DNA of 64,000 nucleotides from Eledone cirrhosa (lineage: Eukaryota), in NCBI GenBank assembly GCA_964016885.1, contig OZ024741.1, forward strand, positions 283,216,001 to 283,280,000, given 5' to 3'. Below are positions 1,312-61,012 of this stretch, in pieces; position 1 is the first letter of the stretch; every line of letters starts with the position of its first letter. The notes under the pieces were generated by a model. It made no database searches. It had not been told where the DNA came from and saw nothing but the letters and a program-made list of their open reading frames with translations. Made by a program: the position numbers and the translations under genes.

Positions 1312-4300
1312 TATCATCATCATCATCATCAACGTTTAACGTCCGTGTTCCACGCTTGCATGGGTTTGGACGAGGGTAGTCCCACTTGAGGCAAGAGTGA
1401 TTGTCTTGCTCGCATAGGACTGTCTGGCAGGTTTTCTACAGTTGGATGCCCTTCCTAACACCAACCACATTTACAGTGTGGGTCTGGGAGGTTTTTACCG
1501 TGTTGCCTACACGGCCACATTACAGCGTGGACTGTGTGTTTTTTTGTCGTGACACCTACACGATCTCATTTGTTTCGGCCTGGATGGCGCGGCACCAACA
1601 TAACTTTACATAGAACGGGGTGGTGTGGATGGGGTGGGGGTGGTGGCGGGACGGGGTGTATTTTGTTAGAGATGCCTACTGGCAAGGCGGGTCTTCTCTG
1701 TTACTGAGTACCGCCAAAGGTCTCGGTCCAGTGACATTGTCTTGGAGAGGTGTAAGTGTGTGAGGTCGGAGTTTATCAGCTCGTCCCAGGTTTTTCTAGG
1801 TCTGCCTATTCCGTGGCTACCGTCTATCTTTATTGCCCTGCACTTTGTTATACAGCTATCGACTTTCATGCGCATCACGTGTCCATACCAACGTAGCCTT
1901 CTCTCGAGTAAACAACATCTGATCCCTCTTATCTCTAATTTTTTCCTTAGTTCGTTTATGCTTTGCCGTTCACGTATATTACTGTTACACATCCAGCGGA
2001 GCATGCAAGCTTCGTTCCTCTCTAGTCTGCGTATATCCTCTGCACACAATGCCCAAGTCTCACTGCCATGCAACATTGCTGTTCGTATGCAGGCATCGTA
2101 CAACCTGCCTTTCATTTTTAGGGAGAACCCTTTAGCAGCTAATAGTGGTATAAGCTCTCTGAACTTTTTCCAACCAGTTCTGACTCTAGCTACAGTACTT
2201 TCAGAGCACCCTCCCCCACTGCTGATTTTATCGCCCAGGTAACGGAAGCTGTCCACTATTTCTATAGAACCCTCTGCGCAATTGAAAGAGCTAGTATTTT
2301 GTGGGCACTTGCTGCTACTTATTGCACCAGAACACCGGCCACATGTAAAATCTATGTTCTTAGTTAGCTTACCTGTGATCCGACTACATCTTTTATCTTT
2401 TATGCACCCATACTTTGCATTTAGGACATAAAATGGAGTTTCTACCTACGCCTTTCCTACACACCGAGCACGACCATTTCCCAGAAGGGACCGCCGCCTT
2501 GTTTTCTTTCCTACAAACTAGAACTTTGGTCTTAGCCAGGTTAATTTTAAGTCCTTTTGACTCTAGGCCGTGCTTCCATGTTTGGAATTTCTTCTCTAGC
2601 TCGGCCATTGATTCCGCTATGAGTGTCAGGTCATCTGCGTATAGGAGTTCCCATGGGCAGCCTGTCTTGAACTCCTCTGTTATAGCCTGAAGGGCAATAA
2701 TAAATAGTAGGGGGCTGAGAACAGAGCCCTGATGGATGCCAACTTTTACGCTAAACTCTTCACTATATTCGTTGTTAATTCTAACCTTGCTGACTGTTTC
2801 TTTATACATGGCTTGTATAGCCCTCACAAGTCATTCGTCAACGCCTAGTTTTCTAAGAGCCCACCAGATAATGGAGCGGGGGACTCTGTCGAAGGCTTTC
2901 TCCAGGTCGACAAAAGCTAAGTAGAGGGGTTTACCTTTAGCTAGGTACTTCTCCTGTAGTTGTCGTACTATGAAAAGAGCGTCTGTGGTGCTTTTGCCTG
3001 ACACAAACCCGAACTGCATTTCATCTAGGTCAATTCTCTCTCTGATTAGTTGCGCTATTACTTTTTCCGTGACCTTCATGACCTGGTCGATTAATTTAAT
3101 GCCTCTATAGTTACTCCTATCTAGGGCGTCTCCTTTACCCTTATAACAGTTAACGATGATGCTGCTATGCCAGTCCTTCGGAACAACCCCATTCTGTACG
3201 ACTTGGTTAACTATGCGGGTGACCATGGTGTGTCCCACCGTGCCAGATGCCTTCAGCATCTCAGCAACTATTTCCGAAGGCCCAGCCGCCTTACCCGTCT
3301 TCATATCCTTGATTGCCTTACTTATTATACTCCCCTCGACTAACACTGCTGGTCCCTCTATTGGGTCGATATGGGGGAGACTGTCTTTCTCCCATTTATT
3401 CTCCTCATTTAGTAGCCTTTCATAGTGACACTTCCAAGCTACCTTCTTATCAGTGTCGGTGATGGCAAGTATGCCATCATCGTTAAGTACACACTTCTCC
3501 CCGACAATATCACGGTTTTCCTTGACGCATTGCCTAGCAATCCTGAACACCTCACGTTTTTGGTCATCGCGTTGTAGAACATGCTTGAACTTTCTTTCCT
3601 CAGCTTCCCTTCTTGCTAAGTACACTTCTCTCCTAGCTTCCCTCCTGGCCACTTGATAGTCTACTCTACTTCCCCCATCCCGCCATACTTTCCAAGCCCG
3701 CTTTTTGGCCTTAATTGACCCCTCCACCTTACTGTTCCACCACCATGTTACTCTCCTCCTGCCTATAGGTCTGCTCCAGCCACAGATTTCATCTGTCGCC
3801 TTCAGCAGGTTAGCTTTCAGGAATTCCCACTGTTCCTCTATATTGAACGACTCTAATTGCTCTTCCTTACTGTCAAAAGCATCAAGTAATATGCTTTTAA
3901 ATTTATTACTGGCTGTGGGGTCCTTTAGCTTCCATATTTTTCTCCTGAGGATAGTCCTCCTCTGTTGTCGAGTACGTCTTGTCCTGACTATGAGGTCGCT
4001 AACTATGAGTCTATGTTGGGAGGTGCATTCTTCATGGGGGAGGGATTTAGTGTTTACAACAGACACTCTGTCACGTCTTCTGGTAAGGATATAATCTATC
4101 TGACTGGTATGTTCCCCTGATCTATAGGTGATCAAGTGATTGTCTCGTTTTTTGAAGTTAGTGTTACAGATAGTTAGGTTATTTGCGTCACAGAATTCCA
4201 GGATTCTGGAGCCTTCCTCATTTCTAGTACCAAACTCATAGCCTCCATGGATTCCGTCGTAGCCGTCACAATGTTGTCCAACGTGACCATTTAGGTCGCC

Positions 4301-4993
4301 TGCAATAATTATATAGTCACTGTCAGATATTTGGGAGGTAGTTAGCAACAGTGTCTCATAGAATCTGTCTTTTATAGTGCCGGGCAGTCCGGATTGGGGT
4401 GCGTACGCAGATATTACTGTCACCATAGTTCTATTGAGGACAAGTCGTATTTTAATTATTCTGTCGTTCACTCTATTTACGTCTATTATCTTATCTGCCC
4501 ACTTTTCTGCTACCATGATTCCTACTCCACCCAGCCCATCGTCGTTTCCCACCCAGAAAAGCTTATAACATCGTTTTTTACCCTCAATGAATTTAGCAGA
4601 CCCACCCCTCCACCTGGTCTCTTGAATACAACAAACATCGACCTCCTTACGTTCAAGCATTTCTACAACCTCGTTAGCGCGACCCTTTAGGGTGCCTACA
4701 TTTATGGTACCAACTCTGAAGTTTTGGATTGCGTTTGGAGGGTGGGGGTGGTGGGGGGCGGGGGGAGATAGGGTTATGTTAGCCATCCGCGGACGAAACA
4801 AAGAGGAGTGCTCGCATTCTCGTCCACGAGGTGAATTTGACTTTAACTTTGGCATTTTCGCTCTGAGCGTCCAGATTTTTCTCTCCCTTCCACTCTCCAG
4901 GATTCCGCAGTCCGTCCATCCATCCATCCATGCATCATATATCGAAGGCAACCGGGCAAGCGATAGTATAGGCCTCTGGCTTATGATTGGTCC
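1312..4993 (-). mobile_element. Near full-length RTE-clade LINE, copy 1 (APE + RT + PHD-like finger)
   Basis: ORF pieces 2831-4951, 2393-2827 and 1666-2256 give APE (NVGTL, QETRW, GDLNGH, QIDYI, SQHRL), RT (FVDLEKAFDRV, QGSVLSPLLF, LLYADD) and the RTE C-terminus (RLRWYGHV, GRPRKTW). One in-frame stop at about 2831 and one frameshift at about 2395. (ATC)n tail at 1312-1330. Confidence 0.95.
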
Positions 4994-5145
4994 GCGTAAT
5001 AATAATAATGGTGATGCGTGGGGGGGAGGGGGGGCTCTGGCTTATAATAATAATGGTGATGCGTGGGGGGGGGTATGGCTTATGATTGGTCCACGTATTA
5101 AGAATGGTGGTGTGTGGGGGCGGGTGGGTGGTGTGTGGGGTAGCT

Positions 5146-5990
5146 AGCTGGAAGGTTATGAATGTTTAACAAGCGATTAACAAAAAGCAAAACTGCAAGA
5201 TTTGTTCTGTTCAATACGACAAAAACACCGTATTTAAACCTTAAATAAATAACAAAAAAATACAGATTTCGGATTTTGCGAGATTGGATGTTTGGACTAT
5301 GTACGAAATTGAGCGTGGAGTAGATAGAGAAAAATGTGTACGTTACGATTACATGGGTACACCGTAGTAGGAATAATTGAAGCAGCGATGGATTGGCGAA
5401 AGTGAATAAACATGAAGGAGAACTTATCTTATATATATATATGTGTGTGTGTAGCTAAGAGAGAGAGAGAGGGGAAGGGGAAGAGAGAGAGAGGGGAAAG
5501 GGAAGAGAGAGAGAGGGGAAGGGGGAGAGAGAGTGTGGCTGACCGCAGCCCCTCGTGGAGTAGATGGAGGGTGAAGGGTGTAGAGCGGATTTTTTGACTT
5601 TCGAAGTAGCATAATATATATATTTAAAGTAATTTATAAGAAGTAGAATGGGAAGGATTTTGTTTTTTGTTTGAGAATACGATAGAATTAAGGAATTGGA
5701 GGATACGATAGAATTAAGAATGGGAAGGATTTTGTTTTTTGTTTGAGAATACGATAGAATTAAGGAATTGGAGGATACGATAGAATTAAGAATGGGAAGG
5801 ATTTTGTTTTTTGTTTGGGAATACGATAGAATTAAGGAATTTAAGGAATTGGAGAATACGATAGAATTAAGGAATTGAGGAGCTGGAAGGTTATGAATGT
5901 TTAACAAGCGATTAACAAAAAGCAAAACTGCAAGATTTGTTCTGTTCAATACGACAAAAACACTGTATTTAAACCTTAAATAAATAACAA

Positions 5991-5995
<5 letters not shown>
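5146..5995. repeat. 115-bp direct repeat (5146-5260, 5881-5995) enclosing a purine-rich tract and about 3 copies of a 72-bp tandem unit
   Basis: agctggaaggttatgaatgtttaacaagcg...aaataacaaaaaaa occurs twice with 1 visible difference; the unit agaatgggaaggattttg... starts at 5645, 5717 and 5789. Confidence 0.9.
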
Positions 5996-6021
<26 letters not shown>

Positions 6022-6336
6022 TATAATGATGAAATATATGGAGAATAGAAATGGCTGTGTAGTTGCTATTTCAGGTAACTTAAAATGCAGTGGGAATACG
6101 AAGAAAGCCAGAAGGAGGGGGGGGGGGGGGAGTTTTCCTCATCAGTTGTCTACTGGGTGTCTCGGATATTTCTACGCTTTAAAGACAATATATCTCGCCC
6201 CAGGGCGTCAATAACTGGATAAGTAATTGGGAAAACGGAGGAGGGAGGGAAGGAAAGCAAAAGGGAAGAAAGGAGAAAACAGTAACAAAACAGCGAAAAA
6301 AAACAGCAAATATATATATATATTTAATATAGAAAA

Positions 6337-6389
6337 GGCTTCTACAGGAGACTAGAACTGTTTCATTCAGGAGAAATCATCAGGAAGCC
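6337..6389 (-). ncRNA. Type I hammerhead ribozyme (Penelope-like/retrozyme type)
   Basis: Minus strand reads GGCTTC-CTGATGA-tttctcctgaat-GAAA-CAG-ttctagtctc-CTG-TA-GAAGCC: 6-bp stem I, intact CUGAUGA/GAAA core, stem III and a GUA cleavage triplet. Confidence 0.8.
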
Positions 6390-6904
6390 CTGATGATAAG
6401 TACCTTACTGTGGTTACCCCCGATTGAACCCGGGATAAACTTATATATATATATGTATATATATATATAAAGAGAGAGGGGGAGGGGAGACAGGCAGACA
6501 GAGAAAGAGAAGGAAGAGATCATATATGAGAACAATAAGTTGTTATACAACTTGCTTTCTAATATTATAAATAACCTGTCGGTGGTCAAAAATTTCAGAA
6601 TTCTTCGAATCTTCATAAAGGGACGTTTGAGAAATGTAATGTATTTTATGCCATTTTCTTGTCTCTCTCTCTATGTTTTACATGGTCCATTTCAATTTTA
6701 TTCGATAATTCTGTCAGACCCTCAAAAACAATCTTCTTGTATTTAAACTCTGATTATTGTTATACGTTCGTTTACTAACCTTCTCGTATTTAAACACTGA
6801 TTACTGTTAAACATTCGTTTGTAGGTTTAGATTATAAAAAAAAATAACCTTCTCGTTAACTTCCCCATATCCCTCCCCCAGCTCCCACTCGCCACCATTA
6901 TTAG

Positions 6905-7090
6905 ATGTGGCAATATCAGTAGAGGGTCGGACGCCATGCTTTCCAGCATAGTTACGTCCCTTTACGATCTAAGTTCAAATCCCGCCGAGGTTGACTTTGC
7001 CTTTCATCCTTACGGGGTCGATAAAATAAAGTACCAGTAATGCACTGTGTAATTGCTGGCCTTGTGCCTAAAGTAGAAACAATTATTAGA
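6905..7090 (+). mobile_element. tRNA-derived SINE
   Basis: B box GTTCAAATCC plus the core gactttgcctttcatccttacggggtcgataaaataaagtacc shared by at least 10 copies in the window. Confidence 0.85.
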
Positions 7091-10000
7091 TGGTCCAATC
7101 ATAATTCAGCAGCTTATTACACAAAACCACCACCTTGGCTATTCACTCCTTAAGTTTAAACCTGGTTGCCTTTGATATGCTAGATGGACTGTGGAATTCT
7201 GGAGGGTATGAAGAATCTGGACACTCAAATGACAATGTCAAAGATAAAGATAAATTCACCTCATGTGGCCGGACGAAAATGCAAGGATTCCTCGTTATTT
7301 CAGATGCGGATGGCAAACATAACCCCATCTCCCTCACCCCGCCCTACACCTCCAACCCATCCCTTCCACCCACCAAACGAAATCCAAAACTTCAGAGTTG
7401 GTACCATGAATGTAGGCACTTTAAAAGGTCACTCTAACGAGGTTGTAGAGATGCTTGAATGTAAGGAAGTTGATGCTTGTTGCGTCCAAGAGTATAAGTG
7501 GAGGGGTGGGTCTGCTAGATTCATTGTGGGTAAAAATGATGCTATAAACTTTTCTGGGTGGAAAATGAAAATGGGCTGGGTGGAGTAGGAATTATATTAG
7601 CAGAAAAATGGGTAGATAAGGTAATTGACATAAATAGAGTGAACGACAGAATAATCAAAATAAGACTTGTCCTAAATAGAACTACTGTGACAATAATATC
7701 CGCTTACGTACCTCAATCTGGACTGCCTGGCATTATAAAAGACAGATTCTATGAGTCACTAATGCTTACTACCTCCCAACTCACCAACAGTGACTACATA
7801 ATTATTGCTGGCGACCTAAATGGTCATGTTGGACAACATTGTGACGGCTATGACGGAATCCATGGAGGCTATGGGTTTGGTACCAGAAATGAGGAAGGCT
7901 TCAGAATCGTGGAATTCTGTGACGCAAATAACCTAATTATCTGAAACACAAACTTTAAAAAATGAGACAATCACTTGATCACCTATAGATTAGGGGAACA
8001 CGCCAGTCAGATAGATTATATCCTTACCAGAAGATGTGACAAAGTGTCTGTTGAAAACACTAAATCCCTCCCCCGCGAAGAATGCACCTCCCAACATAGC
8101 CTCATAGTCAGGACGAGACATACTCGACAACAGAGGAGGACTACCCTGAGAAGAAGAATATGGAAGTTAAAGGACCCCACAAGCAGTAACAAATTTAAAA
8201 GCATATTACTTGATGCTTTTGACAGTAAGGAAGAGCAATTAGAGACGTACAGTATAGAGGAACAGTGGGAATTCCTGAAAGCTAAGCTGCTGAAGGCGGC
8301 AGATGAAGTCTGTGGCTGGAGCAGGTCTATAGGCAGGAGAAGAGTAACATGGTGGTGGAGCAGTAAGGTGGAAGAGTCAATCAAGGCCAAAAAGCAAGCT
8401 TGGAAAGTATGGTGGGATGGGGAAGTAGAAACACTATCAAGTGGCCAGGAGGGAAGCTAGGAGACAAGTGTACCTTGCAAGAAGGGAAGCAGAGGAAAGA
8501 ATGTTCAAGTATGTTCTACAACGCGAGGACCAAAAACGTGAGGTGTTCAAGATTGCTAGACAATATGTCAAGGAAAACCGTGATATTGTTGGGGAGAAGT
8601 GTGTCCATAATGATGATGGTATACTTTGCCATCACTGATACTGATAAGAAGGTAGCTTGGAAGTGTCACTACGAAAGGCTACTAAATGAGGAGAATAAGT
8701 GGGAAAAAGATAGTCTGCCCCAAATCGATCCAATAGAGGGACCAGCAGTGCAAGTTGAAGGTGGTATAATAAGTAAGGCAATCAAAGATATGAAGACAGG
8801 CAAAGCAGCTGGGTCTTCGGAGATAGTTGCTGAAATGCTTAAAGCATCGGGATCGGTGGGACACACTATGGTCACCCGGATAGTAAACCAAGTCATACAG
8901 AATGGGGTCATACCAAATGACTGGCGTAGCAGCATCATCATTAACTGCTACAAGGGTAAAGGAGATGCCCTAGATAGGGGGAACTATAGAGGCATTAAAT
9001 TTATTGACCAGGTCATGAAGGTCACAGAAAAAGTTATAGTGCAACTAATCAGAGAGAAAATTGATCTAGATGAAATGCAGTTCGGGTTTGTGTCAGATAA
9101 AAGTACCACACATGCTCTTTTCCTTGTACGACAACTACAGGAGAAGTACCTAGCTAAAAGTAAACCCCTATACTTAGCTTTTGTTGACTTGGAGAAAGCC
9201 TTTGACAGAGACCCCGCTCCATTATCTGGTGGGCTCTTAGAAAACTAGGTGTTGATGAATGGCTTGTGAGAGCTATACAAGCCATGTATAAAGAAACAGT
9301 CAGCAAGGTTAGAATTAACAACGAATATAGTGAAGAGTTTAGTGTAAAAGTTGGTGTTCATCAGGGCTCCATCCTTAGCCCCTCCTATTTATTATTGCCC
9401 TTCAGGCTATAACAGAGGAGTTCAAGACCGGCTGCCCATGGGAACTTCTATATGCAGATAATCTAATGCTCATAGCTGAATCAATGGCTGAACTAGAGAA
9501 GAAATTCCAAACTTGGAAGCATGGCCTAGAATCAAAAGGCCTTAAAATTAACTTGTCTAAAACTAAAGTTCTAGTATGTAGGAAGGAAAATAGGGCACTG
9601 GTCCCCTCTGGGAAATGGCCATGCTCAGTGTGTAGGAAAGGAGTAGGCAGAAACTCCATTTTATGTCCCAAATGCAAAGTATGGGTGCATAAAAGATGTA
9701 GTGGGATCACAGGTAAACTAACTAAGAACATAGATTTTATATGTGGCTGGTGCTCAGGTGCAATAAGTAGTAGCAAGTGCCCACAGGATACTAGCTCCTT
9801 CCATTGCCCAGATGGTTCTATAGAAATAGTGGACACCTTCTGTTACCTGGGTGACAAAATCGGCAGTGGTGGAGGGTGCTCTGAAAGTACAGTAGCTAGA
9901 GTCAGAACGAGAGGGAAAAAGTTCAGAGAGCTTATACCGCTGTTGGCCACTAAAGGTTTCTCTCTAAAAATGAAAGACAGGCTGTATGATGCCTGCATAC

Positions 10001-10777
10001 GAACAGCAATGCTACATGGCAGTGAGACATGGGCATTGTGTGCAGAGGATCTGCGCAGACTGGAGAGGAATGAAGCTTGCATGCTCCATTAGATGTGTAA
10101 TAGTAATATACGTGAACGGCAAAGCATAAATGAACTAAGTGAGAAATTAGGAATAAGAGGGATCAGATGCTGTTTACTTGAGAGAAGACTACGTTGGTAT
10201 GGTCACGTGATGTGCATGAAAGATGACAGCTATATAAAAAATTGCAGGGCGATCAAAATAGATGGAAGCTAAGGAGTAAGCAGACCCAGAAAAACCTGGG
10301 ACGATTTGATAAATTCTGACCTTACACACTTACACCTCTCCAAGACAATGTCACTGGACCGAGATCTTTGGTGCTACGCAGTAATATAGAAGACCCGCCT
10401 TGCCTAAGTACAAAGCGAAACCTCAGTAGGCACCTCCTAGCCAAAAATACACCCCCATCCCACTACCCCTACCCCACCCACATCTACACCACCCCTTTCT
10501 CTGTAAAGTTATGTTGGTACCACAACATCCAGTCCTAAATAAATGAGGTCGTGTAGATGTCACGACAAAAAAACACACAGTCCACGCTGTAATGTGGCCG
10601 TGTAGGTAACACGGTAAAAACCTCCCAGTCCACACTGTAAATGTGGTTGGTATTAGGAAGGGCATCCAGCCGTAGAAAACCCGCCAGACAGTCCTATACA
10701 AGCAAGACAGCCAATCTTGCCTCACGTGGGACAATTCCCGTCTAAACCCATGCTAGCGTGGAAGATAGATCTTAAAC

Positions 10778-10812
<35 letters not shown>
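7091..10812 (+). mobile_element. Near full-length RTE-clade LINE, copy 2 (same family as copy 1, more decayed)
   Basis: ORF fragments 7184-10092 align with the copy 1 protein; several frameshifts and stops; (GAT)n tail at about 10778-10812. Confidence 0.95.
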
Positions 10813-10813
<1 letters not shown>

Positions 10814-12032
10814 AAATAGAGATGTATAAAAATGTAATTAGAATTTTGATGATGTGCTAAATTTTTAACATAAAGTAGAAACTCTAGTAGTAGAAACTTT
10901 AAAGTAGAAACATTTTTTAATTAATTTATGAAGCATCAGGAAATTTGAAATTTGAAAACACAGTCACCACAATGCAGATAACTATAATAATAGTTGAATA
11001 AATTAGGTAAAGTGCACCTTGAGATGGAAAAAAATAGATCTCTACCATCTTTCAACACAAATGAATATCAAATACCATCTACCACCACATAAACTTAAAT
11101 ACAAACACAAACAAAATACCTTGGGTGGAGAAGGGGTAGCACATAGCCTGCTAGAAATAATAGGCAAGTCTCCTTCAAACCACATCCTTCACATTTACAA
11201 AAAAAGGACTGTTTGGATAATGCGGTTCTGAAAAAGACAGGCTGCTTACTGTTAGGATGTCTTTAATAATAGGTCTGCTCGTGAAGAGCTAGTGAGGGTC
11301 AAACAATACCAATAACAGCATTCCCTATCATGGTTATTGTCTATATAAAGGACTAAACTTACCAACACTAGCTAACAAGTCATTCATCAGTCATACTCGG
11401 TATCCCCTCATTCTTCTTCTTCCATATATTCCCGAGAGGGTCGTGGAGGAAGAGTACTCAAACACTCCTCCCAGCAGCTCCTGTCAGAAGCAACCGTCTC
11501 TAACTGATCAGGCTAGATCCCCAAGCATGACCAGCCAAGCTCATGGATGTTTAGGAAATAGATATCGGTGCACATGCAACATAATATAAAAGACAAAGAG
11601 TACTGGTGAGTGTGAGTGATAAAGTTTTACTTCATAGAAGTCAAAGGTGTATAATGTAAAGGGTTGTTACCCGATGGCAATAATACCATTCTGAAGTTGG
11701 TAGAAAATGTCTTGGCGCTCTAATCTCAGGCTGGTGAGCTGCATGGTGCTTGGTAACAAAAGGGTCGTCCAGCAAGGATCACCAGCTTGAGATTAGAGCG
11801 CCAAGACATTTTCTACCAACTTCAGAATGGTATTATTGCCATCGGGTAACAACCCTTTACATTATACACCTTTGACTTCTATGAAGTAAAACTTTATCAC
11901 TCACACTCACCAGTACTCTTTGTCTTTTATATTATGTTGCATGTGCACCGATATCTATTTCCTAAAGTGGTGACCCCGACGTGATGAACGGCTGCGTGTT
12001 CGTATCACGTCAGGGTTACCAATATAGCGAGG

Positions 12033-14414
12033 CCCCATCTCCACGATTTTGCATCTTCACTGCAGGGGTGTAAGATTTTTTCTAAGCTAGATTTAGTGCG
12101 AGCCTACCACCAAATTCCGGTCAGGAAGGAGGATATTCCGAAAACTGCAATTACAACCCCTTTCGGATCATTCGAATTTTTGACCATGCCTTTCGGACTC
12201 AGGAACGCCGCTAGCACTTTTCAGCGGTTCATAGACGAGGTCACGCGTGGTCTGGACTTCGTCTATGCTTACATAGACGATATTCTCGTCGCTAGTTCCT
12301 CTCCGGAAGAGCATATGCGCCACATGCTTCTCTTACTTCGGCGACTTCAGGATTACCGCGTTCGCGTGAATCCTGCAAAGTGTGTTTTCGGTTCCACTTC
12401 CCTACATTTTTTAGGCCACCTCATCGACGCCGAAGGTATTAGGCCGCTCCCTGAGCGAGTTCAAGCCATACAGGATTTACCTCCGCCTACTACACTTCAC
12501 CAGTTGCGTCACTTCTTAGGCCTAATCAATTTCTATAGGCGTTTCATTCCTCATTGTGCTAATTGGCTATCTTCCCTTACTGACATTTTAAAAAAACGTC
12601 GTAAGAAGAATGAAGACATTTCCTTGACACAAGGACAGCTTCAGGACTTCCAGTCTGCCAAGACAGCCCTCGCTAGTTCTTCTTTGCTAGCCCACCCGGT
12701 ACCAGAGGCCAAGCTTTCGCTTTGTGTTGATGCATCTGATACCGCTGTGGGAGCAGTTTTACAGCAGTCTTACGCTGAAAGCCAACAACCTTTGGCATTT
12801 TTCTCGAGGGAGTTGAAACCAGCAGAAACGCGTTATAGCACGTTTGGGCGGGAATTATTAGCCATATATCTGTCGGTGAAACATTTCTCTCATATCCTTG
12901 AGGGGAGAAATTTTACGGTTTTTACCGACCACAAACCGTTGACCTTTGCTTTGAGGGCCAAAGCCAACAGATATTCGCCCAGAGAGACAAGGCACCTGGA
13001 CTACGTTTCACAATTTACAAACGATATCCAGCACATTGCCGGCTCGCACAACATAGTTGCAGACGCATTATCTCGTTTGCCAATTAGCTCCATCTCGTCA
13101 TCCCAGGACATCGATTTAGGTCGTTTAGCTGCAGACCAACCTGCACTCCAATCGTTGGACACTCTTTCTACCGAATTTGCGACTTGCATTTTCAAATATC
13201 TGCCCTTGTCCACCACCGACAGGCAGATCCTTTGTGATGTATCCACTGATGCACCACGACCACTTGTTCCTGAGACTCACCGTCGAATTGTGTTCCTGGC
13301 TCTGCACAACATTTCTCATCCAGGATCTGCTGCCACAGTTAAACTTATAACAGCCAGATTCTTCTGGCCTAATATGAGGCGAGACATTGCTGTTTTTTGC
13401 CGTTCCTGTATCGCTTGCCAGAAATCGAAGATCCATAGACACATCTGGACTCCACTTGGTACTTTCACCACTCCAGATGCCCGGTTTCAACACATCCACA
13501 TTGACATCGTTGGACCTTGGCCATTCAGCAGTGGATATTCATACATATTGACGTGTGTCGATCGTTTTTCGAGATGGCCTGAAGCCATCCCTTTACAAGA
13601 CATGACTGCTGAGACTGTAGCACGTGCCCTGGTATCAGGGTGGATTACCCGCTTTGGGGTACCAACTACACTCACCACAGACCGCGGTAGACAATTCGAG
13701 TCCCATCTCTTCTCTGAGCTCACAAAAATAATTGGAGCTCAACGGATTCGGACCACAGCCTATCATCCTGCTTCAAATGGAATGGTGGAACGATTCCACC
13801 GCCAATTAAAGGCCGCTCTTCGCGCCTATCCAGACTCTCAACGTTGGAGCGAGTACCTTCCTATTGTGTTATTAGGAATTCGGTCATCAATAAAGGAGGA
13901 CCTTGGGTTCTCCCCGGCCGAATTAATTTACGGTGCTCCTCTAGCGTTGCCTGGGCAAATGCTTGCCCCTGTTGATCTTGCTTTCCAAGATCCGCTTTCC
14001 TACGTATCCCGTCTGCGTTCTTATTTACAGGACCTGCCGCCGATGGATACGAGGAAGCAAACTGTAAAACATGCGGTCCCGAGGGACATTGCCTCGTGGA
14101 CCCATGTGTTCGTAAGGAACGATGCTGTGAGACCACCCCTCACACAACCATACTCTGGACCCTACCGTGTGTTAGAACGCACTGACAAACATTTCACTGT
14201 AGAGGTTAAGGGGTCCAGAGAGACAATTTCGGTGGATAGACTGAAAAGGGCACACAATGACGCTCGTACACCCGAGCCACAAATACCCCAATCTTTCACC
14301 ATTGTGCATACACCTGCTCCTTCTGCCCCACCTTCACCTACATACAAGACTACGACCCGTTCCGGTCGGAGAGTCCACTGGCCCAAAAAGTTCTGCCAAA
14401 CTATTTTTATATGA
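12033..14414 (+). CDS. pol: 5'-truncated Gypsy pol (RT-RNase H-integrase), frame otherwise open; gag, protease and start codon absent
   Basis: [24 protein letters not shown]; RNase H DAS/RELLA/TDHKPL; integrase HHCC, D-D-E (HIDIVG, TDRG, ERFHR), GPY and a C-terminal TRSGR typical of CsRn1-like elements. The frame extends upstream of the GTG at 12096 to the junction at 12033. Confidence 0.95.
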
Positions 14415-14811
14415 ACTGGCCATTGGAGCCTTATATATATATATATATATATATATAGATTTTTTTTTTTTGCTGTTCTTATTTATTTGATTTATTGTAT
14501 TGCAATGTACCTCTCATGACCATTTCACTGGATGTATATATATGTTTTTCGTTTCCTTTACAATGAACATTTTAAGCTATATTCTTCTCTTTGCCGGTTT
14601 ATAAGTTTGCAATGTAAATTTACCGTTGATAACCGCGCATTTATTGGGAATGCTTATTTCTCTGGTCGCTGGCCTCTTGACCCTTCCAGGTCAACGCATT
14701 CTCAACATCGACCATCAACTTCGGCTGCTATTTCTAGCACTTTGCGCAACTCATTTTTTCTAAAAAAATTTTTTTTACTGTGAATTTAAACACCGAATAC
14801 GCTCACTCAGC

Positions 14812-15041
14812 GAGGCAGCAACAGCAATACAGCAACACAGCAGCAACAGCAATACAGCAGCAACAGCAACAGCAATACAGCAGCAACAGCAATGCAGCAG
14901 CAACAGCAATACAGCAGCAGCAGCAACAGCAATACAGCAGCAACAGCAATACAGCAGCAACAGCAATACAGCAGCAACAGCAATACAGCAGCAACAGCAA
15001 TGCAGCAGCAACAGCAATACAGCAGCAACAGCAACAGCAAC
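14812..15041. repeat. Compound (CAG/CAA/TAC) microsatellite in the Gypsy 3' UTR
   Basis: Repeated agcaacagcaatacagc units between the pol stop and the PPT. Confidence 0.9.
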
Positions 15042-15357
15042 CAAAGCCAGAGAATTTACTTTTGCAGCACTCTTCCTGTGAGAAAATCCATTCGGAGGTT
15101 GGAAATTCACGATATACCACAGAACAGAGACCACCTGCATTCATTCTCTGGAACACACTTTCTTTCCTGCGGTCATGTGATTGCACACCTGTGAACTATA
15201 TTTTGTACATTTGAACTTTGAGCCCTTCCCTTACTTTACTACCTTGATATCTATCATTGATTTTTCCAAACATTCTTTTGTCGTAATTTTCATGCCTGTT
15301 ACAACATTCTCGTCAACTTGCTACATATTTTCATTTCGATTTTTATACACTAAAATT

Positions 15358-15371
15358 CTGGCGGGAGGTTA
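15358..15371 (+). other. Polypurine tract of the Gypsy element
   Basis: ctggcgggaggtta lies immediately before TGTAGCG and parallels the PPT of the second LTR element (ctgggtagggaactaa). Confidence 0.75.
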
Positions 15372-15740
15372 TGTAGCGGTTGTCTCCCTTGTTTTGATTA
15401 GGATCTAGACGGGAAGTGGAACCCTTTCTGCAACTTCCGGTCAGAGCCCTATAAAACTAACAACTTTAAGCTTCCTCTATCTCTTTGCCTTTTCGGCACC
15501 AGGTCAAGAGCCTCACATTTGGCTCTGCCATTAATTTGGCCAACAGGCGCCTGGCCTTAGCCAGGCGTCCTCTGCCAGCCGCGTTTGCCTGGCAATCAAA
15601 ACGGTAACTACTAACTTTGCTTCATTCTAACATCTATTCCTATTGACATGTCAACTATAAAATCTACCGTTAATTAAATATTATACACACAAACCATGTC
15701 TCGTTTTGTTACATACATACAACCCAGTAACCTCGCTATA
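15372..15740 (+). repeat. LTR family 1 (369 bp); exact inverted copy at 16270-16638
   Basis: Starts TGTAGCG and ends CGCTATA (terminal inverted repeat); TATA-like ctataaaa at about 15449; preceded by the PPT and followed by a tRNA-Trp complement. Confidence 0.9.
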
Positions 15741-15741
15741 T

Positions 15742-15795
15742 TGGTAACCCTGACGTGATACGAACACGCAGCCGTTCATCACGTCGGGGTCACCA
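15742..15795. other. Head-to-head junction of two tRNA-Trp(CCA) 3'-end copies including CCA; also at 11968-12021 and 16215-16268
   Basis: TGGTAACCCTGACGTGAT-A-CGAACACGCAGCC (antisense to about tRNA nt 76-45) is joined to GTTC-ATCACGTCGGGGTCACCA. TGGTGACCCCGACGTGAT is the canonical tRNA-Trp PBS. Confidence 0.85.
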
Positions 15796-16981
15796 CTTTA
15801 GGAAATAGATATCGGTGCACATGCAACATAATATAAAAGACAAAGAGTACTGGTGAGTGTGAGTGATAAAGTTTTACTTCATAGAAGTCAAAGGTGTATA
15901 ATGTAAAGGGTTGTTACCCGATGGCAATAATACCATTCTGAAGTTGGTAGAAAATGTCTTGGCGCTCTAATCTCAAGCTGGTGAGCTGCATGGTGCTTGG
16001 TAACAAAAGGGTCGTCCAGCAAGGATCACCAGCTTGAGATTAGAGCGCCAAGACATTTTCTACCAACTTCAGAATGGTATTATTGCCATCGGGTAACAAC
16101 CCTTTACATTATACACCTTTGACTTCTATGAAGTAAAACTTTATCACTCACACTCACCAGTACTCTTTGTCTTTTATATTATGTTGCATGTGCACCGATA
16201 TCTATTTCCTAAAGTGGTGACCCCGACGTGATGAACGGCTGCGTGTTCGTATCACGTCAGGGTTACCAATATAGCGAGGTTACTGGGTTGTATGTATGTA
16301 ACAAAACGAGACATGGTTTGTGTGTATAATATTTAATTAACGGTAGATTTTATAGTTGACATGTCAATAGGAATAGATGTTAGAATGAAGCAAAGTTAGT
16401 AGTTACCGTTTTGATTGCCAGGCAAACGCGGCTGGCAGAGGACGCCTGGCTAAGGCCAGGCGCCTGTTGGCCAAATTAATGGCAGAGCCAAATGTGAGGC
16501 TCTTGACCTGGTGCCGAAAAGGCAAAGAGATAGAGGAAGCTTAAAGTTGTTAGTTTTATAGGGCTCTGACCGGAAGTTGCAGAAAGGGTTCCACTTCCCG
16601 TCTAGATCCTAATCAAAACAAGGGAGACAACCGCTACAGATGTTATCCAACCACCTTGCTCGGGGTCTACATCTGGGTTTCTTGCCAGTTAGTTTTGCCC
16701 ATAATATCTGTCCAACGATTCTTTTCTGAGACATTCTAGCTACATGCCCATAGTATCAGAGCCGTGCTCTCTCAATTCAGAGAAGTAGCAGCTCTACCTG
16801 GAGTGACTCTCTGGTCCCTGAGCTATGCACTTTATCGAGTCATGTTACTCCAAAGACCCTTCGGAGGAATCCCATTTCAGCCGCTTGTATTTGCAGTCGT
16901 ATTCTTTCAGTCATTACCCAAGATTCATGACCATAGTAAATCTAGCTGGATGAACTTGGCTAGAAATACAATAATGAAAAG

Positions 16982-17222: not shown

Positions 17223-17826
17223 GGTGTCATTGTCATAGAAACAGCACAGCATGGATACTTCAGCAATTAGACCACTAGGAGTCTCTACATACATCAGTGT
17301 TGAGTTATCAAGGGAGCCTCTATGTGGCCACTCTTTGCTTGCCAAAAATAACAGCTAAATTCTTTCAAATGTCATACACTCTACCTTCTTAAAACAGGAA
17401 GAATACATTAATCAGTCTCCACAAATTCCAATTGAATCAAATAATAATTAATTATTTGACCATAGAATTAAAAAGATTAAAAAAGAGCAGCTGTACTAAG
17501 TTTCCTCCAAAGTGTCTTTGGAATAATGTGACTTGATAGAGTGTGTAGCTCGGAGATCAGAAAGTCACTCCAAATAGAGTCACTACTTGAGAGACCACAG
17601 CTCTGATACTATGGGCATGTGGTTAGAATGTCTCAGGAAATTTTATAGGCAATATCAGCCAGCAAGAGACCCAGAGGTAGATCCCAAACGTGATAGCTGG
17701 ATAACATCCATCAGCTTAAAAGCATTTTCATCATCCCATAATTGTCTTCTTTCTCTTCCTCCTTTTTATTGCACTCATTGTACTTAACAGATTATGTACT
17801 CGGTAACTTCAGTCCTTTTCCCAATG

Positions 17827-18153
17827 CAGTGTAACCTTGGTTTATGAACGCCTCACATCACAAATAAATTGGTTCACAAACAATTTTTCCAAACAGAAAA
17901 TGTCTCGACTCATGAATGGTATCTTGAGTAACGGACATGCAAGCTAGCAACAAGCTTAGAGTATCAGCAAGAAAGTATCACTTGCTATGTAATAAGTTAC
18001 TATGGTTATATCTATCTGTCTTTCACACAGCCTCTCTCTCTCTCTCTCTCTCTCTGTATTCCTCTCTCAACATTTCAAAATAGTTTGGGTTTACAAACAT
18101 TTTGGGTGATGAACAGTCTTCAGGAACGAATAAGTTCATGAACCGAGGTTCCA
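17827..18153. mobile_element. Tigger/pogo-like MITE relic
   Basis: Terminal inverted repeats cagtgtaaccttggtttatgaac and gttcatgaaccgaggttcca. Confidence 0.55.
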
Positions 18154-23113: not shown

Positions 23114-25261
23114 TTAACAAGAATTTTCAATTGAGCCATATTTGCATTTAGCAGTGGCTGGTTTTGGTTGACTAATGCAACAACATCGACTGGTCTGTTG
23201 ATTGAGAAGTGTGATGACTTGTTGTTGCTTAAAGTAAAACCAGACAATTAGAGAAAGAGACAAGCTAAGCACAAGTACAGCTAAGGAGTAGTAAAATACA
23301 TGAGAAGGTAACTGACTTTCCGAGGTCACACGAAGTGTGAATTCCAAGATGCAAAACTGTGGAAATATTGTAGCTAAAGCCATAATGTTGGCAGCTGACA
23401 AATGTACCTTTTTGTGAACATAGGACTTCTTGTGAATGAAATACAGGTTGTAACGATCAACACAATATTTGAGTATCATATAGAGACAACCAAATACTGA
23501 AATGATTGGGCAGAGGATGCTGTAGGTGATGACCACAGAGAATAAGCAGAGAAGATATGCATACTGCTGACCAAAGTCAAATTCAACAATGTCATATTTT
23601 CGAAATGCTCTTCTCTTAGCAACTGAACGGATTGTCACATAACGGTACAGGAGTGTAATTAATTCAGAAATTCTTAGGAGTTCAAGACCAGTTCCTGTCA
23701 GTGCTGAAAGTACAACATAGTTCACAAAAAAAACATTATTCGCCATTGTGAAAATGCACTGTATTTTCTTTGTCAAACTTTTTACAGATATCAAAAGTTC
23801 AAATGCTGTTAGGCCCAGTGATGGTAAGATAACCACTGTAAATAAAAGTGTCATGAATAAAGCTATCATGTTTTTTTTCTGTTGAGAACTTTTAGTCCAG
23901 CTCTTTAGGAATGCAACTGTATCTTTTACACATATTGGTAGTAGGTAGACTGTAATTTTGATCAGATAACTTGGTATAATGACAAACAAAAAGGAATTTG
24001 TCCCATTAATCTTTTCCAAATAAGAGGTAACAAGTGCTGGGCTTGTCACAATTAAACAGATGAAAAACAAAATAACTACAGCTAATACTGTTCTTATAAA
24101 TTTAGAGGAACGTGAGATTGACATATTTTGCCAGATAATATCCTCTTTAGTTGGAGCATAACTCACTAACCATTTTTTGGTGTTGAGTGCAGTACTGAAT
24201 TCTGATGTCATTATATGACGTCTGCACTTGGGAAATGTGTGAAAAGAAGAATATATAGACTCTGCTTCTTCCTCTGAAGCTATTTTCACAAATACCATCC
24301 TTAGTGGCTTTTTTTTAAGTTGGTTCATTTCCATGGCTCTCTCTGATAAAATAGTTTCCTCTGCTTCATCAAAATTATGGATATGGTCATTATTACTAAA
24401 GCATGAACTTACATTTTCTGATTCTTGGGAGGCTTCTGTATTTAAACCATTTTTGCAATGTTCTTTCATATGGCGAATGAGTTGAAGTTTCTCATCCAAT
24501 TTCAAGACTTTTCTGGTGTCATACACAGGTACTATCTTTTGAATAACAACACTTGGATATACCTTATTCAAATGATTTTCAATCAATTTATCAAAGTTTC
24601 CAACTAGGTGAATATTACTTATTATTAGGGTCTTTGATTTATTACTTGTCCATAAATGTTGTGAGAAACGAAGAAACAGGGATATGGTAGCTAGTAAATA
24701 CAACAGGGAAACTGTGACATGTAGCCACAGAAGATTTGAGTGAACATTAGCTATGGTTGTACTGCTCAGGCTGCTGGATGTACTGGATTGTCCCCCTATG
24801 TAATTAACAGGTAAGATTATCACAATAGTGAGGAATACTATGAAGAAAAGGTAGCCGATTAAATACCTTTGGAAATGTAAATAAGTCATAGCATCAGCTC
24901 CACATTTTTCTGTGATATCGCTGTCAGTGAGTCGCAGGAAAGCTCGGAACCAGGAAGTAAATTGATCAGTTTGGCGGAGATGCTCAGGAAATGAAGTATC
25001 AGTTGCTGTTGATTCACCACTCAACTGCAAGTCATTGAGAGATGATAAATCTGTCAGAGGTTTAGATTGGGGGATGTTACATGAAATGTCATATTGACGA
25101 TAATTCTTAATTAGTTTTGGTATGAGTGAAAATATTATCAAACAAGCAATCCAAATAACGGAATTCAAAGCAAAATTAAAAGCAATAGAATTATTAACAG
25201 TTTCACTACTTGTACTGTTGTCACAGTTGGACATATTTCCATTAAATGATACAGTCCACAT
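23114..25261 (-). CDS. TMEM63: TMEM63/OSCA (CSC1-like) mechanosensitive cation channel, single coding exon, 715 aa
   Basis: Uninterrupted ATG-to-stop ORF with about 11 hydrophobic segments and family motifs KCGADAMTYLHFQRYL, LPVNY, LLWLH, YAPTKEDIIWQNM, FFVNYVV...GLELLRI, EFDFGQQYA, CPIISVFG and KYCVDRYNLYF. Confidence 0.93.
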   Translation of the reverse strand: MWTVSFNGNMSNCDNSTSSETVNNSIAFNFALNSVIWIACLIIFSLIPKLIKNYRQYDISCNIPQSKPLTDLSSLNDLQLSGESTATDTSFPEHLRQTDQFTSWFRAFLRLTDSDITEKCGADAMTYLHFQRYLIGYLFFIVFLTIVIILPVNYIGGQSSTSSSLSSTTIANVHSNLLWLHVTVSLLYLLATISLFLRFSQHLWTSNKSKTLIISNIHLVGNFDKLIENHLNKVYPSVVIQKIVPVYDTRKVLKLDEKLQLIRHMKEHCKNGLNTEASQESENVSSCFSNNDHIHNFDEAEETILSERAMEMNQLKKKPLRMVFVKIASEEEAESIYSSFHTFPKCRRHIMTSEFSTALNTKKWLVSYAPTKEDIIWQNMSISRSSKFIRTVLAVVILFFICLIVTSPALVTSYLEKINGTNSFLFVIIPSYLIKITVYLLPICVKDTVAFLKSWTKSSQQKKNMIALFMTLLFTVVILPSLGLTAFELLISVKSLTKKIQCIFTMANNVFFVNYVVLSALTGTGLELLRISELITLLYRYVTIRSVAKRRAFRKYDIVEFDFGQQYAYLLCLFSVVITYSILCPIISVFGCLYMILKYCVDRYNLYFIHKKSYVHKKVHLSAANIMALATIFPQFCILEFTLRVTSESQLPSHVFYYSLAVLVLSLSLSLIVWFYFKQQQVITLLNQQTSRCCCISQPKPATAKCKYGSIENSC

Positions 25262-26212
25262 TGTATTTACTGGTGATATCTGTGCAGTTGGCCGAGACAG
25301 AAACGTTCATTCCAAGCTTTTCTTAGTATGATTACAATATTTCTTCAGGATTCTGCTGAGATTTAATATAATAATAGTTTAACTTTCTTTTCTGCTTTCA
25401 AATAACAACAGTGACATTATGTAAACTTTGTATTATAAAACATAATAGATTAGACATGTGATAAAAAGTAAAAGGTTCAGAACTGTGCGACTTAGATTAT
25501 AATAATAATCAGCATGTAATAGAGGTGTGTTGACATCCAGCAGCAGCAGCAGTAGTAGTAGTAGTAGATTTAAGAGATTTCAGCCATACCAATCAGATAC
25601 AATTTTATCTTAAAACAATTAAAGCAAAGTACATATCTATTTGTGAATTTCAATATTAGTCACACATATATTTCGATAGTAAAGTTAATTTCAGCATAGT
25701 AGTGACACTTTTACATTAAGCTAAATCTTTTTGATACCAAATAGCTTGAAACCTAAGGAATGAAAACAGGAGGGGCATAGAGAGAGTGTAGTGAGGGTGA
25801 GGATAGCTGTTAGGGAGTGCTAGTGAAAGGTGAATGGCTGAGGTGAATAGGAGTGAAGATAGTAGCTACTAGGGTGCAATAGTGAGGGTATTTAAGGGCT
25901 TTTGAGGGGGAAGCAGCTAAAGAGTGAATGCTGGAGGAGTCATGGGTGATGGTGAAGATAGCTGCTAGGGAGTATTAATGGAAGCAGGAGTGGACACAGG
26001 GATAAGTCAAATCACATTGTACAGTGTTGGCTGAGTCTTCACCAGCAAAGCATAGCGCCAATCCGCATGGTCCTGTCATTTGTGGCTCTTCCACAGTTTC
26101 CAGCCACTATGGTTTCTCTGTAATTTTTATGCAGCTACTATCTTCCTTATGCAAAGTCTCTATCAGTACTAGTAAAGCCAAGTAATACAAGAAAACTTCA
26201 ATCATATCTAGT

Positions 26213-43720: not shown

Positions 43721-43956
43721 TGATGATACTCTTACACCTTGTTCTTACTTATTTTAATTATATATGTGTGTGTGTGTGTGTATCAAACATATACTGAATC
43801 GAACAGGATATTTTCATTTTCCTGTTTCGACATCTATTGTAAATGATACCTTCCCAATTTTGTTTCTCTTCCGCGGTGATGATGATAATTATGATGATGT
43901 TGATAAAAGCTAATAACGACAACAGAAGCAAAACTCAATGTAGTTTAGTTACTTAC

Positions 43957-45319
43957 CTTCGTCACTTCCTGGTCCATACTTGTAGCTAAATCCCGTCACC
44001 ATTTTACCAGATTTTTCTTCGTTTGGTACCATTACCTCGACAGCAGTCTGACTGTTGCTCTCCATGTTCATTGGTAAAGATGACCGATGATCAAGGAAAT
44101 AACCTCGATAAAAGAACTGGTAAACTCCGAGGTGTTTCTCCTTACAACCGCCACCTGATACAGCAATCCAATTGGGTTCGACAAGGGCCGTGCACAGAAC
44201 CACAATGACTAGCATACTGACCACTGCCGATAGGATGTTCCGCTCGCGATGTTTCAGCAATCGCCGATGGTTGTGATGGTGTCCAGACGAAATGAAGGCC
44301 GCAGCTGAAGCGGCCGAAGAGAAAAGACCACCACCGCCGCCACCAGCACCACCTCCTGCTGCGGATGACAAGTGGTGGTAGCCATGGTGACCGACAGAAA
44401 AAGATGCCAAAGAAGACGATGAGTGGCCGCCACCACCACCTCCACCACTACTACCACCGCCGCCGCCTCCGCTGTTACCCAAACTCAATGTGGTACTCGA
44501 AGACGAAACGGAACTGGCGGACGTGACTGTGGTCGCATTTGAAGCAGTGTTCATTGTATTGTTGTGATGGTGGTGATGGTTGTTGTTACTGCTGTTGTTG
44601 TTGTTATTACTGCTGCTGCTGCTGCTATAGTGGTGTCTGTTGTTGTTATTGTTGTTGTTGCTGTTCGTGTTGGCACTAGTGTGATGGCGGTGGTGGTGGT
44701 GTCCACTACTGACTCTAGGCAGTGCTGTGTAAGAGGGCGGTTGTGGAGGTGCGCCCACACCGCCGTAGAAAGGCGATGTGGTCATAGTGGTTGAAGGTGA
44801 GGAATTCGACGACGGTCTAGAGGTGACGTGCGACGTAACGGCTGAATTGTTGGTGGGCGTTAGAGCAATTGCACTGGAGTAAGGCGGCAGAGTGTAGTGA
44901 CACGGATGTACAGAATACTGCGGTAATTGAATGGCCGGTCCAACGCCGTTTAAGGTCACTGCTGTGCCAGACGTAGACTGGGGAACAGGACAGAAAGCAC
45001 TCAGACGTACGGAGGTGTCAGTAAGATTTGGATAGTAAGGAGGTGGAGGTGGAGATAAAGTAGTGTTGGTGAAGCTAGTAACTCCACAACCAGCAGCACT
45101 ACCACTACCGCCACCACCACCACCACTCCGAGTGTTTATACTGGAAGTATGGGTCAAAGGTGGATTACTTGATGAACAAGAAGACAACGAAGATGACGAG
45201 GACGAAGAAGTCTGTTGGACACGAGAGGAGCGCCCGCTACGATTAGATCTCGACACACGGCAAACTCTCTGGTGTCCTCTGTTATTTCGACTCGATCTCG
45301 TCTGAGGAGTATCGGGCAT
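43957..45319 (-). CDS. TMEM127: TMEM127 homologue, first coding exon with low-complexity N-terminal extension (spliced product 619 aa)
   Basis: Open from ATG 45319; conserved part ERNILSA...LCTALVEPNWIAVSGGGC; donor GAAG|gtaagt. Exon lengths 1363+171+326=1860 keep the frame. The true start codon is uncertain. Confidence 0.85.
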
Positions 45320-45555
45320 ATTTTGTTAACAAACTGCAATTCCAATGCCCTAATTTTGCTTTGGTTGTAATTGTTTTCTTGTTTAAAACCCCCTCCCAAT
45401 GGATAAGAAAGTTAATGGTTATTTCCAGAGTTACCTGAATAGTTGTAGCAATCCCTTCTCCGTTGAAAATGGTCAAATGAAGGACATTAAATATTAAGTT
45501 GAATAATTTGTTGTCAACTTTTACATAACACTGAGAAAAATCAACTCTTTAGGTC

Positions 45556-56900: not shown

Positions 56901-56931
56901 ACAGAGCCGAGCCTCCGTCAACCATGGCATT
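50948..56931 (-). mobile_element. Full-length, disrupted Tx1/L1-clade LINE (ORF1 with zinc knuckle; ORF2 APE-RT-CCHC)
   Basis: ORF1 pieces 54642-56402 with CFRCGSKTHPRAFC. ORF2 from ATG 54609: SVNVRGL, ISETR, GDWNG, YLDRI, TDHK, KSPGLDGLP, FRPITLLN, LDQSKAFDRV, CPRC...ETVVHALVQC. AATAAA plus (ATT)n tail; (AAT)n at both ends. Confidence 0.93.
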
Positions 56932-56968
56932 TAATAATAATAATAATAATAAAAATAATAATAATAAT

Positions 56969-59514: not shown

Positions 59515-59586
<72 letters not shown>

Positions 59587-60210
59587 CTGTGGGTCACATT
59601 GTATCCGAGTGTAAACACCTAGCCCCGACTCATTATAAAGGCTGGAGACATGATGTGATAGGCAGGGTGATCCACTGGCATCTATGCAAAGTAAACAATT
59701 TACCACATTCTGAGAAGTGGTATGAGCATAAGGCAGAGTCGGTGATAGAAAACGATCAGGTGAAGGTGCTATGGGATTTTAGGATACAGATGGACAAGAA
59801 GTTAGAACACAATAGGCCTGACCTGGTGGTTTTGGACAAGGAAAACAGATCGTGCCTGATTGTAGATGTAGCCTGCCCATTTGACACAAGAGTGCAAGAA
59901 AAGGAGAGGGAGAAAATTAACCGATACCAGGACTTAAAGTGGGAGTTAAAAAGGATTTGGAACTGCCATGAAATCAAGGTCATCCCGATTGTCATAGGCG
60001 CACTAGGTACTATCTCAAAGAGTTTCCAAGGATTGTTAAAGAAGATTAGTCCAGTCCCGCTTTTTGGAACACTTCGAAAGGTATGCTTGCTGGGAACAGC
60101 AAGAACCCTCCGATACGTCCTGAATATCTGTGGCTGCAGGTAGCAGCTTGATATTCATTTCAACAAACTTTCCAGTTAAATAATATCAATGATTGAGACT
60201 CAAAGAACAA
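56969..60210 (+). mobile_element. 5'-truncated R4/Dong-clade LINE (RT + restriction-like endonuclease)
   Basis: WKSPGPDG, YRPITCL, WIDYKKAFD, QGDSLSPLLF, FMDDLKL; CCHC + RHD + RPDLVV...IVDVACPFD...KE.EK..RY. Flanked by (TAA)n, the known Dong target. Confidence 0.92.
58338..59007 (+). mobile_element. 670-bp non-autonomous retroposon with RTE-type tail nested in the Dong element
   Basis: TSD attaggtac at 58329-58337 and 59008-59016; removing the insert restores Dong VSIIRYSAG; 3' stem-loop tcgacagtagtcga plus (TGA)n tail. Confidence 0.85.
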
Positions 60211-60635: not shown

Positions 60636-61012
60636 TACATGCATACATAAATGGTGGCTGCCAACTCGTTTTCGAGTACGGCCACTACTTTATATCCATG
60701 TAGGAGAACCCCTACCGATGCGCTGAACGAGTGTGACTTTTTAGTCCAGCCAGCGACTTGAAAACTCTGGTACAAACACTACACCTGTGACAATTACTGA
60801 CACATAGTGCTGGGCTCATGGTACCATGTGATGACAAGTGCAGAGAGATCTCCAGATATAAAGCAATGCCTGTGCCGTGAAGCTTTTATAGTGAGCAAAG
60901 GCACTGCACAAAGCCAGTCCCACTCTCTTAACCAAGATGATATTTACCAAAAAGAAGAACAAGTCAACATCATTGGATACCATCAGGGTTGAAAGTGTTA
61001 TATCAGAATTTT

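Follow-up and report, generated by a model that had tools for sequence, protein, structure and literature searches.

Self-primed minus-strand strong-stop DNA probably preserved in a chimeric insertion of two CsRn1-like retrotransposon families in Eledone cirrhosa

Introduction

In HIV-1 reactions in vitro, minus-strand strong-stop DNA can prime itself and be extended as far as the primer; template switches of 2 nt have been described as well (PMC6088434, PMC4668388). Such self-priming is regarded as an in vitro dead end suppressed by nucleocapsid protein, with the review, in its available text, calling the products dead ends that went undetected in endogenous particle reactions (PMC6088434). 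Outside retroviruses, complex LTR insertions of grasses contain a cDNA fused from two templates, a single flanking duplication and an internal LTR (PMC1950507), reverse-transcription intermediates of yeast Ty1 enter chromosomes by end joining at double-strand breaks (PMC11372161, PMC1976456), and auto-integration in Arabidopsis yields inverted cDNA products inside particles, namely circles whose inversion junction is an LTR end (PMC7197481). Our literature search, with most subscription papers outside its coverage, found no description of an integrated self-primed strong-stop hairpin.

Here we describe one defective insertion of 5,089 bp (positions 11550-16638) in a 64,000-nucleotide stretch of the Eledone cirrhosa assembly GCA_964016885.1 (contig OZ024741.1; the whole stretch is hereafter the window) that joins two tRNA-Trp-primed, CsRn1-like Ty3/gypsy families. 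As in the HIV-1 reactions, a tRNA-primed minus-strand DNA probably folded on a short internal match and extended to its primer; unlike them, the product belongs to Ty3/gypsy, is fused to a second family and is integrated in an animal genome. Like the grass insertions, it has one target-site duplication around a two-template fusion (a Sabot and Schulman-type criterion in the available text), whereas theirs are head-to-tail with direct LTRs and this one has inverted two-family termini, inner primer copies and two nested palindromes; direct, near-identical outer LTRs and two complete cores were not found, the termini being inverted relative to pol around one truncated core. It shares with Ty1 the entry of an intermediate into a chromosome, but carries integrase hallmarks and a self-copied hairpin. 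Auto-integration of the Arabidopsis kind was rejected, since the internal junctions of the insertion are not LTR ends. Chemically, then, it is a variant of known aberrant reverse-transcription products, in an unusually complete record.

Results and discussion

One integration event joining two CsRn1-like families

The insertion is bounded by a 4-bp target duplication, GATG, at 11546-11549 on the left and 16639-16642 on the right (both + strand), and when the insert is cut out and a single GATG kept, the site aligns gaplessly with a paralogous repeat (17450-17900). At the left, the terminus is the inverted family-2 U5 end (...CCTAAA on the minus strand), which is the first base of the hairpin arm A described below, the right terminus is the inverted U3 end of family 1 (TGT on the minus strand), and by hand count each fits six of the seven positions of the CsRN1 att (integrase) motifs (PMC3601003, Table 3). 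This marks 11550-16638 as one integration event with integrase-type LTR ends on both sides, and because these termini share a single GATG duplication, the structure must have been a linear cDNA prior to integration.

Family 1 contributes a 5'-truncated Ty3/gypsy pol (12033-14414, + strand) that encodes reverse transcriptase (broken near its start), RNase H and integrase, is open to its stop codon, and is accompanied by neither gag nor protease. Its Pfam domains follow the order RVT_1, RT_RNaseH, Integrase_H2C2, rve, and YXDD and GPY/F motifs were recognized by reading. The best matches are 49-68% identical and mostly unnamed, the named ones coming from Sparganum and Spirometra, tapeworms in which CsRn1-like elements predominate (PMC12471100); viral contigs gave no match to the pol patterns. 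Similarity to relatives begins at codon 12033 in 111 of 120 alignments and the preceding codon matches in none of 101 anchored relatives, so the junction 12032/12033 is near-blunt. Downstream of pol lie a polypurine tract (PPT) read from the sequence (15360-15368, + strand) and the family-1 LTR (15372-15740, + strand; 369 nt, TGT...ATA, with a TATA-like motif at 15450), followed at 15741-15779 by a spacer, the family-1 primer-binding site (PBS1, 15742-15759) and the native leader (15760-15779). Inverted family-1 sequence recurs on the minus strand at 16231-16638 (leader, PBS and complete LTR) and at 11984-12032 (the 20-nt leader, whose AT is shared with the family-2 PBS, then PBS1, spacer and the last 10 nt of U5). 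The 3' untranslated part of family 1 also holds a CAG/CAA-rich tandem repeat (14815-15047), with similar repeats at 56193-56418 and 44555-44664.

Hallmarks of CsRn1-like elements are a tRNA-Trp PBS, a 4-bp duplication and LTR ends of TGT...AAA or TGT...ATA (PMC2582038). The family-2 PBS (PBS2) fits all 12 positions of the published PBS, TGGTGA[G/C]CCCG[T/A], and PBS1 differs at two (PMC2582038). With ARAGORN returning no tRNA genes in the window and Rfam no matches in 11300-16800, the tRNA-Trp identity is taken from this published match. As for the remaining hallmarks, the duplication is the 4-bp GATG, with an intact empty site in the paralogous repeat, LTR1 reads TGT...ATA, and LTR2 ends in AAA, its 5' end lying outside the window. 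The locus thus resembles the CsRn1 clade (CsRn1, PwRn1, AgCR; PMC2582038) in PBS, duplication length, LTR ends, the order RT-RNase H-integrase, YXDD and GPY, but differs in that gag, the carrier of the CHCC signature, is missing; the placement draws on these shared features.

The family-1 leader (15760-15779) adds about 14 nt of tRNA-like complementarity beyond the 18-nt PBS and is native in high-depth contigs; we take this extra stretch to resemble the T-arm of tRNA-Trp. Functionally, the insertion is a dead copy that has neither gag nor protease and is incapable of self-mobilisation, and sequence analysis of the window detected no function of its own.

A third CsRn1-like LTR in the window (61178-61615; TGT...AAA, preceded by a PPT) is 73% like the family-2 U5. 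Beyond these elements, the window contains a large, old inverted duplication (1313-10798) with many arms at 86-92% (e.g., 1681-2396 with 9689-10404), in which LINE-type endonuclease/RT frames lie at 2831-5041 (minus strand) and 8367-9248 (plus strand), and more fragments of LINE-type endonuclease and RT, in both orientations, at 52699-57810. A single long, apparently intronless frame at 23114-25306 (minus strand) is like CSC1/TMEM63 channels, at 67-68% to Octopus proteins and 55% to Argonauta, in keeping with an octopod host. Long frames unmatched by Pfam occupy 43949-45325 (minus, 458 codons), 54642-55925 (minus, 427 codons) and 59229-60143 (plus, 304 codons).

The hairpin and its parental LTR

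At its left end the insertion carries a hairpin, A-S-A' (11550-11966), whose arms (11550-11737 and 11779-11966) are 188 nt each around a 41-nt loop and differ at a single position, G11729 opposite T11787; this length is far beyond chance. The initial annotation had given these arm and loop lengths, to which the mismatch is now added. Arm A (minus strand) is a minus-strand copy of the family-2 LTR U5 and R with the parental G at 11729, and loop S (11738-11778, minus strand) is colinear with A in the parental LTR. The next nine nucleotides (11779-11787, + strand) are the native self-priming 3' end, which forms 8 bp and a terminal G·T with 11729-11737, and the remainder of arm A' (11788-11966, + strand) would be the self-primed copy of A. 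Arm A' continues at 11967-11985 (+ strand) into a 1-nt spacer and an exact 18-nt copy of the tRNA-Trp-type family-2 PBS.

The same unit recurs on the right. Positions 11550-12032 equal 15797-16279 over 483 nt, differing only at 11729/15976, and the insertion is very young, as no unexplained difference was found over 482 direct-repeat positions. The second hairpin copy (15778-16232) comprises the PBS2 complement, A (with A at 15976), S, A' and PBS2, and forms the centre of a 613-nt palindrome with no mismatches (15372-15984 and 16026-16638). Its flanks are 18 nt of primer-sense sequence (15778-15795) and their complement (16215-16232), which bears out an earlier description of this copy as tRNA-bounded, except that the bounds then drawn, 15774-16236, take in 4 nt of family-1 leader. 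The outer tRNA-like stretch was rejected as part of the hairpin product, being native family-1 leader in contigs from public runs, and for the same reason, its presence in high-depth contigs, a reading of 32 nt of tRNA-like sequence plus gttc as read-through and skipping over a modified tRNA base was dropped.

The parental LTR was sought in contigs of 4 of 14 public runs aligned to 15050-16065, among the matches listed (32 of 816 records). Parts of that region occur in 9 of the 14 runs, none of them an RNA run and none holding half or more of it, and the aligned runs contain at most one third of its words and may come from another species or population; two of the four (organism A) cover the family-2 part, while the other two have no cover of arm A. 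Both listed loop-crossing contigs (run X3, depths 28.6 and 8.4) are colinear from A through S to 16034, and the deeper one extends another 41 letters, which depart from A', the side being deduced from a coordinate convention checked on three records. The parental LTR is therefore non-palindromic, with the loop in the orientation that the fold-back model had predicted, followed natively by the 9 nt 16026-16034. Base 15976 is G in all three contigs counted (X1, 324.8 of 324.8 depth; X3, 37 of 37), as in the left copy at 11729. In a more diverged X3 contig, two 5'-stem bases (15981 and 15982) differ, which shows that conservation of the native stem is less than strict.

At the other end, the native LTR2-PBS junction is present, and family-2 similarity in the native contig ends exactly at the 18th PBS base. 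Contigs of depth 521 (X3) and 7 (X1) show the LTR1 end, PBS and next 19-20 nt as native family 1, and because the leader is native to family 1, the two families meet at the AT overlap 15778-15779. In run X6 (organism C), many very-high-depth 31-nt contigs match 15773-15803 with one difference, the remaining LTR being absent, so organism C has a family in high copy number that shares this end, the PBS and the initial leader bases (gaacg behind the PBS). As the X6 contigs carry gaacg, the overlap between the families (2 nt, perhaps up to 7 nt) and the end of the primer copy are less sharply placed. Positions 16036-16065 were uncovered in all four aligned runs, whose contigs drop rare variants and are hence uninformative on the locus itself, and a metagenome scan with a 20-nt loop pattern gave one match (L001, 61% GC, only 23 matching letters), which we took as chance.

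These contigs also bear on whether A-S-A' might be a naturally palindromic LTR or a fold-back/MITE element. The unit is present twice in the window, as such an element might be, but both copies lie within one insertion, and dispersed copies with their own target duplications were not found among the relatives seen; these run linearly across S and leave A' after 9 nt, and the relative at 61521-61616, 73% alike, is an ordinary LTR end. We thus give a natural palindrome next to no credence.

Self-priming of a tRNA-primed minus strand

The fold had been attributed to a 5-nt match at the loop base (tcacc/ggtga); the primer is in fact longer, with eight Watson-Crick pairs plus the terminal G·T. Since the parental base at 15976 is G and the ninth native base is T, the mismatch at G11729 preserves the parental sequence of both strands rather than decay, and it is supported that the G·T marks the primer terminus at the fold-back end. 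Folded as DNA, the 59 nt of the native end reach −11.5 kcal/mol, with 1 of 200 shuffles as good; of 1724 stretches of 238 nt taken from the window, 45 offer comparable 3' pairing. Another fold-back site of the same length, 8 bp, lies 28 nt earlier (11759-11760) but went unused, which suggests a fixed free 3' end, i.e., that a stop rather than the match set the site.

The far end of A' is equally telling. In the integrated copy, arm A abuts host DNA, and the spacer and primer copy (11967-11985) have no partner at the left terminus; folding therefore preceded integration, and a 19-nt template must have been attached to A during fold-back copying and removed later. This loss matches the removal of the tRNA primer by RNase H (PMC6088434). 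Evidence for a strong-stop product includes a strand that starts at the LTR2 U5 end, a loop colinear in the parent, a native 3' end that pairs upstream, and an 18-nt primer copy whose end is blurred by at least 2 nt through the family-1 leader overlap. Copying of a tRNA halts at the 18th primer base, at a methylated adenosine. With the parental loop orientation, the processed U5 left end, the 18-nt primer copy and the G·T terminus all agreeing, the snap-back at the core of the initial annotation is supported, and it appears very probable that a family-2 minus strand, started from a tRNA, primed itself within a particle.

The same observations weigh on a DNA-level origin, in which replication template switching or fold-back repair in nested elements rearranged the locus after integration. 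Fold-back inversions at short inverted repeats are, in the literature available to us, common in DNA repair, and the G at 15976 could have been lost if the two 613-bp arms underwent conversion, but beside the integrated left A there is only host DNA to template the spacer and PBS beyond A', and both termini are LTR ends that share a single 4-bp duplication, with the target intact, so that we regard a post-integration rearrangement as very unlikely. An assembly or library artefact, made of fold-back reads or an amplification chimera, seems just as improbable. Perfect palindromes are typical of artefacts, the locus rests on this assembly, and among the reads and contigs seen none spans the fold-back junction; an assembly error could account for the orientation of the loop, or for base 15976, in the right copy. 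Against this stand the target duplication at exact LTR ends, the junction at the 18th primer base, and the parental G·T in one copy only. In all likelihood, the chimeric insertion is real, recent and defective, and it probably preserves self-primed minus-strand strong-stop DNA.

Fold-back point and RNA 5' end

Whether the 3' end that folded was the strong stop itself depends on where family-2 RNA begins. The fold-back end lies 238 nt from the LTR2 end. The distance from the TATA-like motif to the LTR end is 291 nt in LTR1 and 323 nt in the related LTR 61178-61615, where a duplication with 58-nt spacing closely follows that motif. Transcription starts about 28 nt behind the TATA. On this spacing, the expected start-to-end spans would be 263 nt for LTR1 and 295 or 237 nt for the related LTR, and the fold-back end, falling within about 25-60 nt of the start predicted from these two LTRs, is compatible with an RNA 5' end. 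By alignment to the related LTR (score 161; shuffles 85 ± 7), the fold-back end would fall about 45 nt behind its expected start, unless the 58-nt-spaced duplication is discounted; the LTR2-LTR1 alignment was not used for placing the start, as its score was not significant (95, against 85 ± 7 for shuffles). A TAR-like 5' RNA hairpin was unsupported, the 239-nt plus strand folding at z −1.24 with 24 of 200 shuffles as good.

The same tRNA-primed fold-back could instead have begun from a premature stop, located either in R or, if a normal first strand transfer had already taken place, in U3. Consistent with this, the copied part near the fold-back end has no TATA or initiator-like motif, the alignment scoring 161 (against 85 ± 7) puts the fold-back end about 70 nt behind the TATA-like motif of LTR 61178-61615, and a second fold-back elsewhere in the window, at 61059-61258, has its turn close to the PPT and well away from any strong stop. 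A fixed free 3' end is favored, however, by the G·T that closes the primer and by the 8-bp site left unused at 11759-11760, and 238 nt is near the range of 237-295 nt that the two related LTRs predict with a 28-nt spacing. A premature stop is therefore an improbable reading though not a negligible one, and we lean toward the fold-back 3' end being the strong stop at the family-2 RNA 5' end.

The second fold-back, an older one within 60987-61619, turns just upstream of the PPT; 61059-61145 is an inverted copy of the third LTR's PPT end and U3, with a 51-nt tandem duplication. GGTT at 61616-61619 and 60987-60990 is only a candidate target duplication, since the left end is not LTR-like. The presence of this second case (61059-61258) in a related LTR hints that fold-back recurs.

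Origin of the palindrome and order of events

The 613-bp palindrome had been ascribed to a hairpin cap followed by strand-displacement copying. In symbolic models, simple strand displacement (M1) gets both the orientation of the loop and the length wrong, whereas a ligated hairpin cap gives the right loop orientation but a G at 15976, needing an extra G-to-A change; the cap model stands only with later conversion or assembly error at 15976. A second snap-back of a PPT-primed plus strand (M3) reproduces both the loop orientation and base 15976, and would require a second fold at most 8 nt from the loop or later conversion between the arms.

Mechanistically, we posit the following sequence, which would take place in a retrotransposon particle containing RNAs of two CsRn1-like families. 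In the first and well-supported step, tRNA-Trp would prime a family-2 minus strand of 238 nt (A, S and 9 nt), whose free 3' end would fold on A via 8 bp and the G·T, reverse transcriptase then copying A and 18 primer nucleotides; in the somewhat favored variant of this step, that 3' end lay at the RNA 5' end, as the strong stop. Next, an overlap of 2 nt (perhaps as many as 7) would let the hairpin 3' end move onto the family-1 leader at a point 20 nt behind the PBS and copy leader, PBS and LTR, the junction being plain in the sequence and its place in the order presumed. A PPT-primed plus strand may then have copied through the hairpin loop and snapped back, creating the perfect 613-bp palindrome, and extended as family-1 minus strand into pol. 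Finally, the near-blunt switch at 12032/12033, again observed as a junction and presumed in its order, would link the hairpin strand to the RT gene in place of normal plus-strand transfer, after which primer removal would leave U5 of family 2 and U3 of family 1 as the two ends for integrase to insert with a 4-bp duplication. The second to fourth steps fit more than one order and are not unique, and as an overall account we consider the integrase-made insertion of an aberrant two-family cDNA by this route likely.

Conclusions

We speculate that CsRn1-like strong-stop hairpins act as surrogate primers on the leader of another family using the same tRNA rather than as dead ends, and that such fold-backs regularly reach the germ line, swap ends and seed palindromes, a generalization that we hold as tentative and rather doubtful. 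Such surrogate priming would possibly be tethered via the shared primer and the extended tRNA-like stretch of family 1. The structure implies that two LTR families were co-packaged, and it yields a sharp prediction, from DNA alone, of the family-2 transcription start. An integrase-marked copy would show that self-priming occurs in cells that feed the inherited genome, and that its product can be rescued by the RNA of another family and integrated. Such events would also offer a route to long perfect palindromes, which we infer to be possible sources of hairpin RNA and possible fragile sites.
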